A program made the position numbers and the translations under genes. From Sphyrna mokarran (Eukaryota), in assembly GCA_024679065.1 (NCBI GenBank), contig JAGIQG010000009.1:100812001-100876000 (forward strand): a stretch of DNA of 64,000 nucleotides, in the 5' to 3' direction. Positions 5,765 through 36,232 of this stretch are shown piece by piece; the first letter of the stretch is position 1; every line of letters starts with the position of its first letter. The notes under the pieces were generated by a model that did no database searches, was not told the origin of the DNA, and saw nothing but the letters and a program-made list of their open reading frames with translations.

Positions 5765-6665
5765 CTGGAATAAGACTCAGAGTTTTGTAATAAAAAAATG
5801 TGTTTTGACTCAGTGTCTCAGCTGTATTACGTTATCAACAACACTTGAATGTGGATTGAACGTGTTATGAAATTAATCTGATTTCTATGTGCACTGTACT
5901 TTTAAATTGTTGAGTGCACAATGAAATGGAGTATAAGGTATAATTCTTGGAAGCAATGACTTTCAATTGACATGGAAATCACGTGTTACTACATTTCCCT
6001 GCAATGTTCACATGCCAGTTGGCAAATCCATTAAAATATCATAAGCAGTAACAATATAAATTAAAATAAAATGTTTGTTTTAGTTGTATACAACGTGATA
6101 ATTCGCAATATTAAACTTGTTCAAAATCTACTCTGCTGTTTTTATTACATTGCACAAGTGAATATCAATCCGATTGGGGTTTTGAAAAATGAAACAGGGA
6201 ATATTGGTTTATGTTTCCATTGTTACTCATGGAAAGATGTTTGAAAATTGAAGGTGGTGTCACAATAGCATTGCTCCATCGTGAAAAGGAACGCAATCTT
6301 CCGCATGCTGCCCGTGATTCTAATTCGTTAGATTCCAATTCTGACTATATGAGTCAGGATGTTTGCATGCATTGATTTATTCAATGGAGGCTCTCGAAAA
6401 AAAATCAATGTGCAAGGTGCATTAGTTTTGATGTTATCCGAGGTTGAAAAATCCATTTTGTTTGCAAAATTAAGACAATTTATGTGTCTTCCAATTACTT
6501 ATTTCCGTTATAAGTTTGTATGAATAGTTAATGATGTAAGCGACAGTATTCAAAAGAGACCAGCTAATTGGTGCACGAGACTAAAATCAGATGCCTCTGC
6601 ACGCAAAGACGGAAAATAAAACGCCCTGTCTCTTTCAGTTTGCAATAATAACAAAAAGTTTTTAC

Positions 6666-6683
6666 CTGATGAACAGTGTGTTC
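6666..6683 (-). pseudogene. Possible 18-nt micro-exon (THCSS), phase 1-1
   Basis: ttaatcttcag|gaacacactgttcatcag|gtaaaa. Confidence 0.35.
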
Positions 6684-7597
6684 CTGAAGATTAAGTTTAA
6701 CTGTGTTCTTTTGACATAATGGTTGCACCTCCACATTGTGAGGATAATATTATCTCAACAACTACCTAGAATCGTTAAACAGATCAATGTTAAGCCAGAA
6801 ACTGTAAAAGTCTACCTCGCTTACGTTCGTGGTAGTTGACAAATCGACGTTGCGAAAATGAGTGGCGATTTTGTACAGAATGCCCGTATTAAATCGTTTA
6901 TAAGTAACAATTGCACAAGGCAATTGTGCTGCACAGCTGATTGAGGGAAATTGATGAAGAAGATTGTTTTTCCTATGTCATGAGGTTGATGGTGGGGGTG
7001 GGGGGAGGGGGAAGAGCGGGGCTAAGTAAATCTAGGGCAAAATGCATTCTTTATAGTTGACAATAAAGTTAATTTTTTGAAATATTTACATTGTGCTTAT
7101 AATTAGCAACATCGCTAACCCAGTAGAAAATATCAGAATCCAATTTTATGCAGGTTAAATGATTATGCAATATACAAGGGATGCTAATAAGCATCATTGG
7201 AGCACTTCTTACGCCACATAATTATTTTGATCGTTTCTTATGCAACAAAATAAAACAACATAGAAAAAAAACACAAGCTCATATTCACGTAATTATTCAG
7301 GTGCATCTTGCTGTTTTTAACTAGCAAAATGATTACACCTCAATTTCTAGATATTAAAATTGGTGCAAAGTTCAATAATGGCAGCTTTTTCACAGAATGC
7401 TACAACTAAAAGGCAATGTGAAAAAAAAATCTGATGAAAAGCCATTTTGCAGAATATGCATCGCTAACCAATGTTCACGAATTAGAAAGGAAACAATTAT
7501 TCACGCTCACATGTGAGAAGTCAAAAATACACATCTTCAATAATTAATATGAATGTTAGCAGCAACGAAAGAAACAATGTTGGAGGAATTATTTTAC

Positions 7598-21690: not shown

Positions 21691-21716
21691 GGCGGGAGTA
21701 ACTATGACTCTCTTAA
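21691..21716 (+). rRNA. 26-nt 28S rRNA fragment (upstream half of the R2 target); not an rRNA gene
   Basis: ggcgggagtaactatgactctcttaa is identical to the conserved 28S sequence that precedes ggtagccaaatg. Confidence 0.95.
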
Positions 21717-21850
21717 ATAGGGAAGGAGAGTCATAGTTACAATAGCTGTGTGAATTTTATCGCTCCTATAACACAGTGAGTTGCGCCTCCCCGATGGCCC
21801 CGTCGGCAACATCACTACTATTTGGGCGAGCAGTGATGGCTAAAGCAACT
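21691..21850 (+). ncRNA. HDV-like self-cleaving ribozyme 1 (intact-looking)
   Basis: P1 ggcggg 21691-96/cccgtc 21799-804; P2 agttgc 21779-84/gcaact 21845-50; P3 gcc/ggc with L3 tccccgat; P1.1 cc/gg; P4 catcact/agtgatg; J4/2 gctaaa with candidate catalytic C21840. Confidence 0.88.
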
Positions 21851-21914
21851 GGCCAAGGAACGAATCGCGGATGTAGTTGCATGTCTGTACCCAGTCAGAC
21901 TGCAGTTGCAAACT

Positions 21915-22086
21915 GGTGGATTGAGATTGGCTTTCATCCATTCATGCGGAAGAAGGGTCCATCCAGAATTGCCTATCTCAAGTAATTGTGCGAATCTTCT
22001 GGTTTCTATAACACAGTGAGTCAATCCCTTCCGCGGGACCCACCTGGTGTCGTCTCCAAGGGCACAGGAGATGGTATTCCATGACT
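21915..22086 (+). ncRNA. HDV-like ribozyme fold 2 (diverged)
   Basis: P1 ggtgg 21915-19/ccacc 22040-44; P2 agtca/tgact; P3 ccc/ggg with L3 ttccgc; P4 tgtcgtctcc/ggagatggta; J4/2 atypical (ttcca). Confidence 0.7.
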
Positions 22087-22099
22087 GGCCGAGAAACAA

Positions 22100-22305
22100 A
22101 TAGCGGGTGCGACTCATGCCCATACTATGACCACTCTCACCGGACTGTCAGCCAGGAGTGGTGTTGCTAGAGTAGTACTTGGTATGTTTAGCATAACTGT
22201 GGTTATCTTGGCGTTCTAAACCACAGTGAGTAAAACCTCACTGAGGTCCCGTAGGGTATTCAGGACTTCAAGCTAGCAGGTGATTGTCCTGAAGGGAATC
22301 TGACT
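22100..22305 (+). ncRNA. HDV-like ribozyme fold 3 (more degenerate)
   Basis: ctgtggtt/aaccacag stem then tgag; P3 acc/ggt with L3 tcactga; cccgta-gg; P4 ttcaggac/gtcctgaa; tgact. P1 5' strand uncertain and J4/2 non-canonical. Confidence 0.55.
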
Positions 22306-23060
22306 AGTCGAGAACTGCCAACGCCATTCTGTACCTGTAAACCTGGTAACCTGAAAGAAACTATGACTTGACAGGTCCCGTGCTGTTCCCGGGATAGTTG
22401 GTGAAATGCAGGTGACCGATGCGATCGCGCCTATCAAGGTAGCAGAAGCCTTACCGAGACATCCAGCCCAGGCGACTGGCTTCGACGGGAGACGATTGTA
22501 CCCGTATCTGGAGTGACGCAGCAAATGGACTGTGGTGCCCCGGCTCGTTCCTGATGATCGCTGGTCAGACGATGATGAAAAGGGGAAGGTTCGCGCGAAC
22601 CTCTAGAGACTCTTGTAAATTGACATTTGTCTTCTATGCCCCGAGAGATTGGGTGTGGTTAGACAGCGATGGGTGCAGCTCCCGGGTTGTGCGAGCGAGC
22701 TTCATACCGCGGTTGCGTTTTCGGTATTGTTCGGTTGTTCGTTGTACGTTTGTGTGTGTTACTTAATAAATCCGCTTTGTAACCAGATGATGTTTTATGG
22801 GTAAACGGCTCGGAGCAAACGAGCAAAAACTAACATACACGACAAACGCTTCCCAGTGATGTAACTCAATCCGCTTGTCTGCACTTGTGGTGGTTGTGGC
22901 TACATCGTTCTGAGATCAATTCCCCGATTCTGCCAATGGCCTAAGGGCTGTGATACCATCTGGTGGAAGACACTCTGATTCCCTTCAGAAGTGCGTGGCA
23001 CATGTCGATGAGCGACAACAAAACTCGAACAAGACGGTCTCCGAGTTTTTTCTCGAAAAT

Positions 23061-23900
23061 TAGCATATGTAATGGCGACGACTGCCACATATGTTCTCTG
23101 CGACATATGTTCAACTATCTGCCCTGCAGTTATGCCCTTTCTGCAGAATCCATCTTTTTTTTTAAACGGGGCGACATTGTTCCATTTCAAATAAGCTGTA
23201 CCTGTTTTGCATCTAGGAAGTTTTACAAAATTAAATCTACACATCCTCAACAAGTAATTTAAGAACGTGGAGGTTGTGCATTTGTCCTTGCATTTGTCAG
23301 GCAGCAGCTCTCACTATTCACTGAATGCCACTTCTCTCGAAATTATAATTTCCTTCGGTTTCTGGTCTTTTTCCCCGTTAAGTCAGTGTGTCACAGATCT
23401 TTCTGATGTTTTCTACAGAAATAACTGATGCAAAAATATATTTGATTCATTTCTCATTGTCCTGGTTTCCATTAAATGTCCTTCAGCTTCAATTTCTATT
23501 TGGGCAACGGACACACTGTTAACAATTTACTTTTCAGTTAATTTCTCACCGTTGATGTTCATTTCACTCACTTCCTTTCTCTTGCGCATTAATTATTCCA
23601 TCATTTTTAATCGTTGCATCGTTGGTCATCTTTCATGATATCATTTATTATTATTTTAATGCGCCAATTCAGCTTGCACAGTTACATGACTCTTTGTGAA
23701 GAATTTATTCTAGCTTTAACACAATTTATTAAACACGTATTTAAACTATGTCTATCGTACTTTCCTATTGTTTCTGTGAAGGTATTATGTGCATTCTGAA
23801 ATGATTTCTTAATGCTTTGTTACTGCCTCCCTTATTTTTCCCCCACCAATTCTGTTCAACGAGCCTAATTTTCAAGCGCTCACAATCGCTCTTATTGATG
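23061..23900 (-). mobile_element. Old CR1, right part; continues the copy left of the insert
   Basis: Decayed reverse-strand NYRPVSLT-region sequence (atgttcaactatctgccctgcagttat, aaacggggcgacatt) follows on from the segment at 21640-21690. Confidence 0.5.
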
Positions 23901-23953: not shown

Positions 23954-24026
23954 TGTCAACCAGGATCGTTCATTAAGCTTTTTGCGCTGCATAATAGTAG
24001 TGCATAATAGTAGTGCACATATATGC

Positions 24027-24058
<32 letters not shown>

Positions 24059-24200
24059 GTGCATGTAGGCATACAAATCCAGATGGGCAAAAACATATCT
24101 TTTCAGGATAATATTTTCTCTAATAGCATGTTCACGAGACAGTAATAAAGAACTACTATTATGCAGCGCAAAAAGCTTAATGAACGATCCTGTGTTGACA
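23954..24200. mobile_element. MITE-like element with ~48-bp near-perfect terminal inverted repeats
   Basis: tgtcaaccaggatcgttcattaagctttttgcgctgcataatagtagt (23954-24001) is the reverse complement of 24152-24200 with one indel; (TA)n inside and on the right flank. Confidence 0.7.
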
Positions 24201-28459: not shown

Positions 28460-29280
28460 GCCAGCCATTCACCTACCTATCCATCCATCCATCAAACTNN
28501 NNNNNNNNNNNNNNNNNNNNNNNNNNNNNNNNNNNNNNNNNNNNNNNNNNNNNNNNNNNNNNNNNNNNNNNNNNNNNNNNNNNNNNNNNNNNNNNNNNNN
28601 NNNNNNNNNNNNNNNNNNNNNNNNNNNNNNNNNNNNNNNNNNNNNNNNNNNNNNNNNNNNNNNNNNNNNNNNNNTCTGTCCATCCATCCATTGACCCATC
28701 CGTCCATTCATCAGCCAGCCATTTAACTTTTCATCCACGCATCCATCAGACCAAGCCATCCCGCCATTAATTCATTCATCCATGCATCCACCCTCCCATC
28801 CATTGTCCCATCCATCAATCCATCCATGCATTGATCCATCAACCCTTCCATCTAGCCCTCCATTATTCCATCCATTCTTGCATGCGTTCTGTCGTTCCAT
28901 CCATGTCACCATCCATCCGTCTATTATCCTTCCATTCCTCCATCCATCAATCCATTCGTCCACCTCTCCATCCATTCATCCAACTCACAATGCATCGATC
29001 CATCCAACCAATAATCCATCCATCCAACCATCCACTCCCCACCGGTCCAATTAACCATCCATAAATCCATCCTCTTTCCATCAATTCATCCATCAGTCCT
29101 TATGCCCATCTATCTATAAGTCCATTCATCCATCCATCCATCGAACCATCCATCCATCCATTCATGCATCCACCCTTCCATCCACGGATCCGTCCATCTG
29201 TCATCCGTTCACCACCCATCTATTCTTTCATTCATCTATGCATTCATTGATCCATGCATCCATTCTTTCACCTATCCTTT
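28460..29280. repeat. Degenerate (CCAT)n microsatellite containing an assembly gap (N 28499-28674)
   Basis: Visible directly. Confidence 0.95.
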
Positions 29281-33899: not shown

Positions 33900-34345
33900 T
33901 AGAATATAGCATACTACAGCACAAATAGGCCCTTTGGCTCACAAGTTGCGCTAATCATATCCATACCTACAGGCTATAGAACTATCTACAACTCCCTATC
34001 CCGTTAATTCCCATGTACTCATCCAAAAGTCTTTTAAAAGACACCAGAGAGTTCCCCTTTACCGCCCCTGACGGCAACAGATTCCACTCACTCACCACAC
34101 TCTGACTGGAAAAAAAAAACTCTCTGACATCTCCTCTGAAACTCCTCCCCAGCACCTTAAATCTGTGTCCTCTCTTACCGACCATTTTAGCCCTGGGAAA
34201 TTGCCTCCGAGAATCCACGCTATCTATACCTTTCAACATTTTATAAACCTCTATCAGGTCGCCCCTCAACCTTTGTCCCTCCAGGGAGAAGAAACCTAGC
34301 TCCCTCAACTTATCATCATAAGGCAAGCCTCCCAATCCAGGCATT
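33900..34345 (-). mobile_element. Relatively young CR1 3' end
   Basis: MPGLGGLPYDDKLRELGFFSLEGQRLRGDLIEVYKMLKGID...WNLLP, plus tail. Confidence 0.95.
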
Positions 34346-36232
34346 CTAAGTCTAAGTCCCCTAGACTTAAACCTCTCCATTGAAATTAGGCAGTAAAAAG
34401 CAGGCATAATTGTTTGCCTTAGATTAGCAGTTCTAAAACTTCCGAAATTTCTAAGCAGAGGGTGAAAGATTTTTCTTCTAGCAAACCCAGGCAGCAAAGG
34501 CTTTTATGACAACATGAACATGAGCCTGGTTTTAATGCAGGCTTAACTTGTCACACTAAATCGTTTCCGTCAACCATCCAGACTGAAAACTTACATGACT
34601 CTGCACGAGTCATCCAAAATATCAAGAGAACTTAAATAAATAACAGGTCAACTAACTGTACGAAGTAATACAATGATGGCTAAAATCAGTTATTAGGTCG
34701 TATTCTGCTTTTCCAGTTTAACAAGCAAATCGATCCATGTAGCAAAACACGGCCACTAAAAATCAGTCTACGCTTCGCATATAATGTATCAAAATTGTAC
34801 AATACTATCAGAGGAGTTTCTCCTTTTTAATAATAACGTGTTTTATATCAATCTGACCATAACAGACAACTCAACGGCCATTCCCTTTACATTAGGTCTG
34901 ACAAATATGCAAGGACTCGTTTAACCTATGCATTTGCATTTTTATTCATTTCATGATTGAAATGTATGTTCTAGAACTCGAGAAATCCGTATATCATCGA
35001 CATCCTTCATCCAGGTTCCTTGTTACGACTACAAATAATTTTATCAAATTAGTCAAACACAACTTGCACAGCGTAAAACAAAGTGATGCTGATGGATTGG
35101 ACACTTCAAATATCTGCTACTGCTTCTTCACAATTAATTATCAACAATAGAATTTAAGCAAACTAACCTACGTTTCCTCTTTTCTGCCATTCTTCCTTTC
35201 TGAACAGGCTGACTACGACTGTTATTTTTCCAAACCACTCAAACTTTCTCTAGGCCCTTTGGATCGTTTTCTAATATTAACATTTCCACTATTCATCTGC
35301 CCCTTTCATTAAAATTCTAGGATGCCTGTCGTCAGGCTATGAGGACATGTCAGATTTCATCTGATGGTTAGCTTAGCGCTTTAACACTAGTGTTGATGAT
35401 TGTTTTAAGTTGATCATTTTCAACAATATTTGCAGCATTGTTGAAAGATTTTAGTGCGCTATACGTGGGAAACAGAGGGAAAGTCCGGAATTCGTGTTGG
35501 TGTCATTTCATATTCTGCATTATTAATTCCGCAATCTTATCCTTCTAAAGAGCAACGTTGACTGTGACTATTTTCTTTTTTTATGATACATTTATAGACT
35601 AATTGCGCAGAAACAATTTCATTATGTGTTTTCCTTTAAAATTCCAGTCATCTTTTAAGCCCTATTGGCTATGTAAATGCTTCTCAATTCTGCAGATTGC
35701 CACTAATCGGTGTAGTACAAAAGGCCTTATCTATTTTGTCTTTATATTATCTTTCAACTCCATGCATTGCCTTACAGGAATTTTCCCATTTAGGAATATT
35801 TCTTCTTCTGTGCATCATATTTTAATTGGGAGGAATGGAGCGTGTCCTCAATGACTGTCATTGCTCTTAAACTACCCAATCTTCTTAGGATTTCTGCGCA
35901 ATTCACTGTGATAAATTTGCCTTCATATTTATATACCTTATTTATAAAAAAAGGCCACGTGTGCAATATAAGATATTGTTATCAAACTGAATTTGAAATC
36001 CAAGATACAATAACCCTTCTCCCGATAGAATCATTCGTAAAATATCATGTAATATTGTTAAGAAATTCCATCAGATCAGAAGACTAAGTATAAAATACCA
36101 GGAAATCTGGTTTTGTGCGCACAAAGCTGTTCCAAGAATTCTTATCTAACTTATGACCTCGAGATTACGCTTACAGTGTGCTTAATCTGGTCTGTAAATA
36201 CAAATGAAAAACACACATGATTGTTAGCATAC

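Follow-up and report, generated by a model that had tools for sequence, protein, structure and literature searches.

A decayed non-coding element outside the rDNA

The window, a 64,000-nucleotide stretch of the Sphyrna mokarran genome (contig JAGIQG010000009.1), carries at 21691-23059 an old copy of a repeated element. At non-CpG positions this copy departs from the majority sequence of its family by 6.9%, at CpG positions by 14%. An earlier note on this DNA had described a GC- and CpG-rich island here. GC content is indeed raised (0.50 versus 0.36-0.38 in the 5-kb flanks), but the CpG excess is only modest (observed/expected 0.84 versus 0.65-0.68). As the note proposed, the island opens with 28S rRNA sequence: a 26-nt leader (21691..21716, on the plus strand, as are all parts of the element) corresponds to -28 to -3 of the R2 site and is identical in its letters to 28S/R2 junctions. 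Behind the leader stands a three-copy repeat, anchored by cacagtgag at 21772, 22012 and 22222 with spacings of 240 and 210 nt, just as had been described; the motif occurs once more in the window, on the minus strand. Unit 1 occupies 21745..21850, unit 2 21914..22086 and unit 3 22103..22305.

The units are followed by a middle segment (22306..22620), common to the sister subfamilies described below (nhmmer E 2e-35 to subfamily B1) and with no nhmmer match to autonomous R2, and by a segment specific to family A (22621..23003), in whose place sister family B has ~540 nt resembling the 3' UTR of autonomous R2. An nhmmer search with 22621-22990 found no match to either autonomous R2 or B. The last part, 23004..23059, comprises a pseudoknot, a 6-nt hinge, a stem that is partly decayed in the window copy, and an A-run, and is the predicted binding module for R2 protein. 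The hairpins previously noticed at the 3' end form this pseudoknot-hinge-stem, but the TAGC that had been assigned to the element belongs to the host target: the element stops at the A-run (23059), and the flank at 23060..23066 resembles 28S downstream of the R2 site.

The absence of an R2 open reading frame was corroborated. No overlapping frame exceeds 136 aa, a Pfam search with three frames of the element gave nothing below E 0.16, and tblastn of the element against two R2 proteins gave no significant match. A zinc-finger remnant suspected near 22405-22470, in the middle segment, found no Pfam or tblastn support and was rejected. The copy also lies outside rDNA, as had been stated. Judged by its sequence, the window copy is a decayed, old fossil of a dispersed non-coding family.

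Elsewhere in the window, a 173-aa open frame at 33982-34503 (minus strand) resembles the C-terminal part of a LINE found in other flanks and has no Pfam match. A degenerate TCCA array spans 28679-29263, a 16-bp tandem duplication lies just 3' of the element (23082-23112), and a 13-bp repeat with a TA run (23988-24060) was the source of most weak Rfam matches.

A multi-copy family with a younger sister

A DNA search of the shark's own 2.77 Gb genome, in which 40 of 585 candidates were scored, yielded at least 46 matches. All 30 loci that were fetched carry the element at 80-89% identity, and most have the same two ends in unrelated flanks; the element is a multi-copy family with shared ends. 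The genome contains 190 exact matches to a 21-nt leader pattern, most of which begin a younger sister family, B: 40 further leader matches, when fetched, comprised 30 B copies, 9 A-type copies and one 28S scrap. The B 3' motif has 267 exact matches. Over the first ~900 nt, including all three units, B and A are alike at 72-77%, and the 3' half is different.

Clustering of 93 copies, with 5'-truncated or odd loci omitted, gave subfamilies A1 (which includes the window copy), A1b, A2, A3, B1 and B2. Three clusters of one or two B copies were left out of the consensuses, and 34 of the 93 copies were used for the pair counts below. Pairwise divergence is 2% in B1 and 5% in B2, and a further subfamily, B3, emerged in a sample of loci anchored at the 3' end. 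When sequencing runs were searched with a young B copy, 10 runs were listed, one of them with half of the words.

Some loci depart from the common layout. At three (L150, L176 and L208), B copies stand head-to-tail in tandem, the second copy starting inside the leader. An apparent fourth unit at another locus, L048, was ruled out, this being an older three-unit copy with an insertion of ~300 nt. One intermediate, L031, is A-like in its 5' part and 77% like the R2 3' UTR in its 3' part, a mosaic that suggests repeated exchange of 3' halves.

One canonical ribozyme and two conserved look-alikes

The order P2-P3-L3-P3'-P1'-GG-P4-J4/2-P2' was found in all three units, as claimed. The proposal that the units are three HDV-like ribozymes was supported for unit 1, which has canonical L3, P1.1 and catalytic-C context, and not for units 2 and 3, whose active-site features are non-canonical. 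In unit 1 the P1 5' strand (21691-21696) is part of the 28S leader; a J1/2 hairpin (21745-21777) is followed by P2 (21779-21784/21845-21850), P3 (21785-21787/21796-21798) with L3 (21788-21795), P1' (21799-21804), the GG (21805-21806) and P4, and the catalytic-C position is 21840. This canonical HDV-like ribozyme is predicted to be active in source copies and to cut just 5' of the first G of the leader (21691). Cleavage at 28S -28 is the commonest arrangement among the R2 elements treated in PMC3774820.

A strict HDV descriptor, with P1 taken from the 28S leader, was satisfied by unit 1 in the window copy and in 6/6 subfamily consensuses, and unit 1 was its sole match on both strands of the window. 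Unit 2 was found only by a relaxed descriptor, and unit 3 by neither, the relaxed form requiring 7 contiguous P4 pairs. The descriptor also missed the ribozyme of autonomous R2, so failing it is not proof of inactivity. A comparison with Rfam, which the earlier note had recommended, gave no HDV-family match for the element at E<=5, and scans of the element region and three younger loci returned no ribozyme family; the ribozyme of autonomous R2 likewise had no Rfam match.

Unit 2 has its own P1 strand (21914-21919) and keeps the hairpin, P2, P3 and P4. Cytosines are retained in its J4/2, yet the J4/2 is non-canonical, and the full canonical set of L3/P1.1 plus C-N-R-A in J4/2 is not present. 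Unit 3 consists of a P1 strand (22103-22107), hairpin, P2, a weak P3 and P4, and likewise does not show this canonical set. Its L3 CC is absent in 6/6 subfamilies and its catalytic C in 5/6 (B1 has it), and the subfamily of the window copy lacks both. Units 2 and 3, in which canonical active-site features are missing, are predicted to be non-cutting.

Across the six subfamilies, the fraction of invariant columns is 0.83 in unit 2, 0.73 in unit 3, 0.67 in unit 1, 0.58 in the middle segment, and 0.32 and 0.53 in the J1/2 linkers. The core of unit 2, with 28/29 columns invariant, is the most conserved part of the element, and the P1 strands of units 2 and 3 are both invariant. Over 34 copies, 13 helices are 95% paired, compared with 30-47% when slid, in a structure drawn from the same sequences; the helices of unit 2 are 89-97% paired. 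Two-sided changes number five in unit 1 (hairpin, P2 and P4), two in unit 2 and none in unit 3, where P4 was left out of the count, and the total, 7/77 pairs, shows no excess over a shuffle mean of 8.1. We regard units 2 and 3 as strongly conserved look-alikes that are probably catalytically dead, and their conservation suggests a non-catalytic job.

An autonomous lineage-A R2 with the same 3' end

With a query R2 protein that came from a 28S junction in a metagenome, we found 86 R2 protein matches on chromosome-scale contigs of this genome. The 16 loci fetched hold copies of one element of 4.96 kb that resemble each other at 85-98%. In 9 of them the ORF spans 1345-1358 aa, the intact frame being 1355 aa; none of the 16 has rDNA flanks. 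The best PDB match of the protein is R2Tg (E 3e-215), and the bird and turtle lineage-A enzymes are its closest relatives among solved structures. Its three zinc fingers and Myb domain are intact and align to those of bird and turtle R2. At its 5' end this autonomous R2 starts with a partial 28S leader and has, by eye, one ribozyme-like unit.

The dispersed autonomous copies (L124-L139 and L264-L270) fall into at least two age groups, ~98% and ~89% alike. Three loci (L261, L262 and L263) are one-ribozyme internal-deletion derivatives of the autonomous R2, ~0.85-0.95 kb long; L262 and L263 have common breakpoints at different loci, so a deletion-derivative SIDE has also multiplied. A 3' UTR segment of R2 and B (L130 ~6600-6720; L063 ~6490-6610) matches a very common short flank repeat, a candidate SINE core.

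The earlier inference that the element derives from R2 is upheld by a 3' module and a target preference that it has in common with the autonomous R2 of its own genome. A, B and R2 all end in a pseudoknot, a 6-nt hinge and a stem, which is the 3' architecture given for vertebrate lineage-A R2 in PMC12180492, and the commonest hinge of B (19/30) is identical to the avian hinge reported there. In 37 A copies the paired cells amount to 133/145 in S1, 137/146 in S2 and 201/222 in the stem; single-strand folding of the 3' end, by a method that cannot form pseudoknots, gave a z of -0.54, which is not significant. The last ~55 nt of the element match the 3' end of autonomous R2 (nhmmer E 7e-5), and B is 74% alike to its 3' UTR over ~540 nt.

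Of the two element ends that were to be compared with the UTRs of the species' own R2, the 3' end agreed in sequence and structure. The leader, hairpin and core order at the 5' ends are alike by eye, but blast and nhmmer found no match for the first 900 nt. Because neither these 900 nt nor the A-specific segment match present autonomous R2, the parent lineage was not found. The element is multi-copy and hence no one-off deletion of an R2, and no autonomous R2 with a three-unit 5' UTR was found in a search that covered 30 + 40 of the 100 listed among 190 leader sites, plus 10 R2 5' sites. At two loci (L278 and L287), older R2-like 3' ends, 69-77% alike to the young R2, are joined to 28S; such diverged ends imply that more than one R2 lineage has been active.

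Target sites and 28S junctions

At 151 junctions, from which 2 of 30 A loci were omitted for having no clear 3' end, the flank after the A-run matches T, A, G, C, C and A in 137, 120, 105, 84, 89 and 58 cases, respectively, with A, B and R2 alike. Positions beyond the sixth are at background (83 junctions tested). As many as 34 of the 151 insertions lie in two sites inside LINE reverse-transcriptase genes, used by A, B and R2, where membership means likeness to six seed flanks and the seeds are counted. Both junctions were available for 106 copies, for 22 of which an empty homologous site allowed a comparison. Targets reconstructed in this way have deletions of 0-9 nt in 17/22 (one being a tandem artefact) and overlaps of 1, 15 and 49 nt in 3/22. 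From these junctions we infer an R2 insertion pattern with relaxed specificity.

The assembly has no match to an intact 28S R2 site, and intact rDNA is absent from it. Eleven exact sites join an A-run to 28S downstream of the R2 site. Ten of them were fetched, three being identical noisy copies, and in every one the 28S is preceded by an end of A, B or R2 type. These junctions carry ~40-550 nt of 28S and then unrelated DNA, and one has 28S on both sides. On the simplest reading these would be retroposed read-through transcripts from rDNA source copies, although they could be insertions into 28S scraps. Because the element ends join 28S exactly at the R2 site, source copies are likely to reside in rDNA. 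A 63-kb contig (L271-L277) contains a B copy after a 46-bp tandem repeat, followed by ~550 nt of 28S; there are two identical noisy copies, and the rDNA unit is incomplete.

5' ends of the copies

Among the 106 junctions retaining leader, 39 start at the G of the predicted unit 1 cut. In B3 only 7-8 nt of leader are left, equivalent to the P1 strand, and 11/17 copies start at its first G. A further 68 B loci were fetched by way of their 3' ends, and 48 of them still have unit 1. The autonomous one-ribozyme R2 is often full length too, with 53 exact 5' motifs versus 80 exact 3' motifs.

Of 21 truncated B ends, none coincides with a cut predicted for unit 2 or unit 3. Eight, drawn from three subfamilies, cluster 3-40 nt before the P1 strand of unit 2 (scan p 4e-4, for a cluster that was spotted after the first batch; the second batch contributed 2/5). 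A score-ranked sample gave 8 truncated A copies, none of which ends in this cluster. Some truncated ends show microhomology to the target. The B cluster hints at a nuclease (decay) barrier at unit 2; it could also reflect target microhomology or stalling of reverse transcriptase.

Proposed life cycle and alternative explanations

In our interpretation the locus is one decayed member of a multi-copy family that encodes no protein and probably depends on R2 for its copying in trans; it carries one predicted ribozyme and two predicted dead inner folds. We put the probability of this reading at roughly 0.78. The common 3' module, target and hotspots make a lineage-A R2 protein the likely agent of trans-mobilisation. 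Source copies in the 28S R2 site would be co-transcribed with rRNA. P1' of unit 1 would pair with 28S -28..-23 and the ribozyme would cut there, so that the leader forms the start of the RNA. R2 protein would then bind the 3' pseudoknot-hinge-stem and prime reverse transcription at 28S or, because the specificity of this R2 appears relaxed, at chromosomal sites resembling TAGCC. Insertion would delete a few nucleotides of the target and duplicate none of it. The inner units may be former 5' ends that later gained a new ribozyme module in front of them, for instance by R2 template jumping; since any inner unit still able to cut would detach the part upstream of it, only dead inner units would persist.

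The most likely job of units 2 and 3, in our view, is to block 5'-to-3' decay of uncapped RNA, a suggestion that we make with less than even confidence. PMC11331408 posits that the fold and not necessarily its activity protects the R2 template RNA; the same source reports a strong drop in insertion when the C of the catalytic site was itself replaced by A, which counts against our reading. The wider scenario, in which a lineage-A R2 with intact DNA-binding domains relaxed its specificity to 5 nt of 28S-like sequence and dispersed along with a SINE-like parasite that piles up ribozyme modules at its 5' end and whose dead inner HDV folds were exapted as nuclease barriers, is more tentative still.

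Alternatively, units 2 and 3 might be relics of duplications at the 5' end that evolve neutrally and have simply had little time to change; we consider this rather unlikely. R2 5' ends are known from PMC3774820 to grow by duplication, few compensatory changes were seen in the inner units, and both the one-ribozyme R2 and its simple one-ribozyme deletion derivatives have spread too. Against neutrality, the cores at 0.83 and 0.73 stand well above the adjoining linkers and also above unit 1, and both inner P1 strands are invariant.

It is less probable that dispersed copies, having their own P1 strand, are self-releasing sources and propagate independently of rDNA. In favour of it, unit 1 is complete in each full-length copy, dispersed R2 copies in many cases have intact ORFs, and only part of the leader is kept in B3 and in autonomous R2. 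However, a target deletion in an rDNA source explains a shortened leader equally well, and ends of all three types (A, B and R2) run into downstream 28S at the canonical site, as read-through from rDNA predicts.

That all three units are working ribozymes, the inner cuts yielding shorter templates or backing up unit 1, is doubtful. All subfamilies keep the stems, the separate P1 strands and the GG, the core of unit 2 is nearly invariant, and 8 truncated ends are found shortly before this unit. Such an array is at odds with the non-canonical J4/2 of unit 2 and with unit 3, which has no L3 CC and mostly no catalytic C; moreover, 0/21 truncated ends fall at predicted inner cuts, and most 3'-anchored B loci have unit 1. 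Dispersal by another LINE (CR1-like or L2) is very improbable: the genome is rich in LINE reverse-transcriptase copies and 34/151 insertions lie inside them, but the element has no LINE-like tail, and its 3' module, TAGCC preference, hotspots and lack of duplications fit the autonomous R2.

Relation to known R2 systems

The closest known counterpart of the element is R2Dwi_SIDE of Drosophila willistoni, which as described in PMC3414825 is non-coding, with a 5' HDV-like ribozyme, an R2 3' end, an unrelated middle and a 5' end diverged from the co-existing R2. That element is 529 bp long, has one ribozyme and is described in the rDNA of an insect, whereas the shark element measures 1.4-1.7 kb and has three folds, a leader-based P1, hundreds of non-rDNA copies and successive subfamilies. 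Set against the features that define an R2 SIDE, the shark element has no R2 ORF, a 5' HDV-like fold, a 3' end matching a co-existing R2, R2-type junctions and multiple copies. With regard to the 28S site, the window copy and most others are elsewhere, and ends of the A, B and R2 types each occur in exact junctions with 28S. The element appears to work like a Drosophila R2 SIDE, with most of the defining features, and differs in dispersal, size and stacked folds.

The R2 HDV-like ribozymes that cut at 28S -28 in PMC3774820 form P1 from 28S -28 to -22 and show growth of the 5' end by duplication, as proposed here; the duplications reported there are of short 28S pieces, whereas here whole ribozyme modules would be kept as inactive folds. 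R2-lineage elements outside rDNA are described in flatworms (R2NS-1_SMed and R2NS-1_CSi; PMC5035012) and in the cockroach Blattella germanica (BLAG; PMC7650587), in both cases as non-specific or random. Unlike these, the lineage-A R2 of this shark retains its zinc fingers and Myb intact, prefers 5 nt of 28S-like sequence and still has junctions at the 28S site. Vertebrate lineage-A R2 (R2Tg and PlaMe; PDB 9dou and 9nl2) has the same protein architecture and 3' pseudoknot-hinge-stem and is described as 28S-specific (PMC12180492; PMC13188248).

A literature search, with Repbase, Dfam and supplements outside its scope (the tables of PMC13188248 may hold shark R2 UTRs), returned no paper describing this element. 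PMC13188248 defines its R2s, those of Chondrichthyes included, by 28S insertion, and the word 'non-autonomous' does not occur in it; PMC13580325 leaves non-autonomous forms unmentioned.

Implications

The conserved, apparently inactive inner folds offer a natural test of the value of an HDV fold to R2 RNA beyond catalysis. Lineage-A R2 proteins, whose specificity for 28S is described as strict, are under development as tools for inserting genes at defined sites. In this genome, hundreds of what appear to be off-target insertions, made in nature by such an R2 and its passenger elements, make a minimal target readable, and the intact R2 proteins can be compared with the specific bird and turtle enzymes. 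If the proposed scenario is true, the family would represent the exaptation of a ribozyme as a structural shield, and its copies, with those of R2, a natural map of R2 off-target sites.
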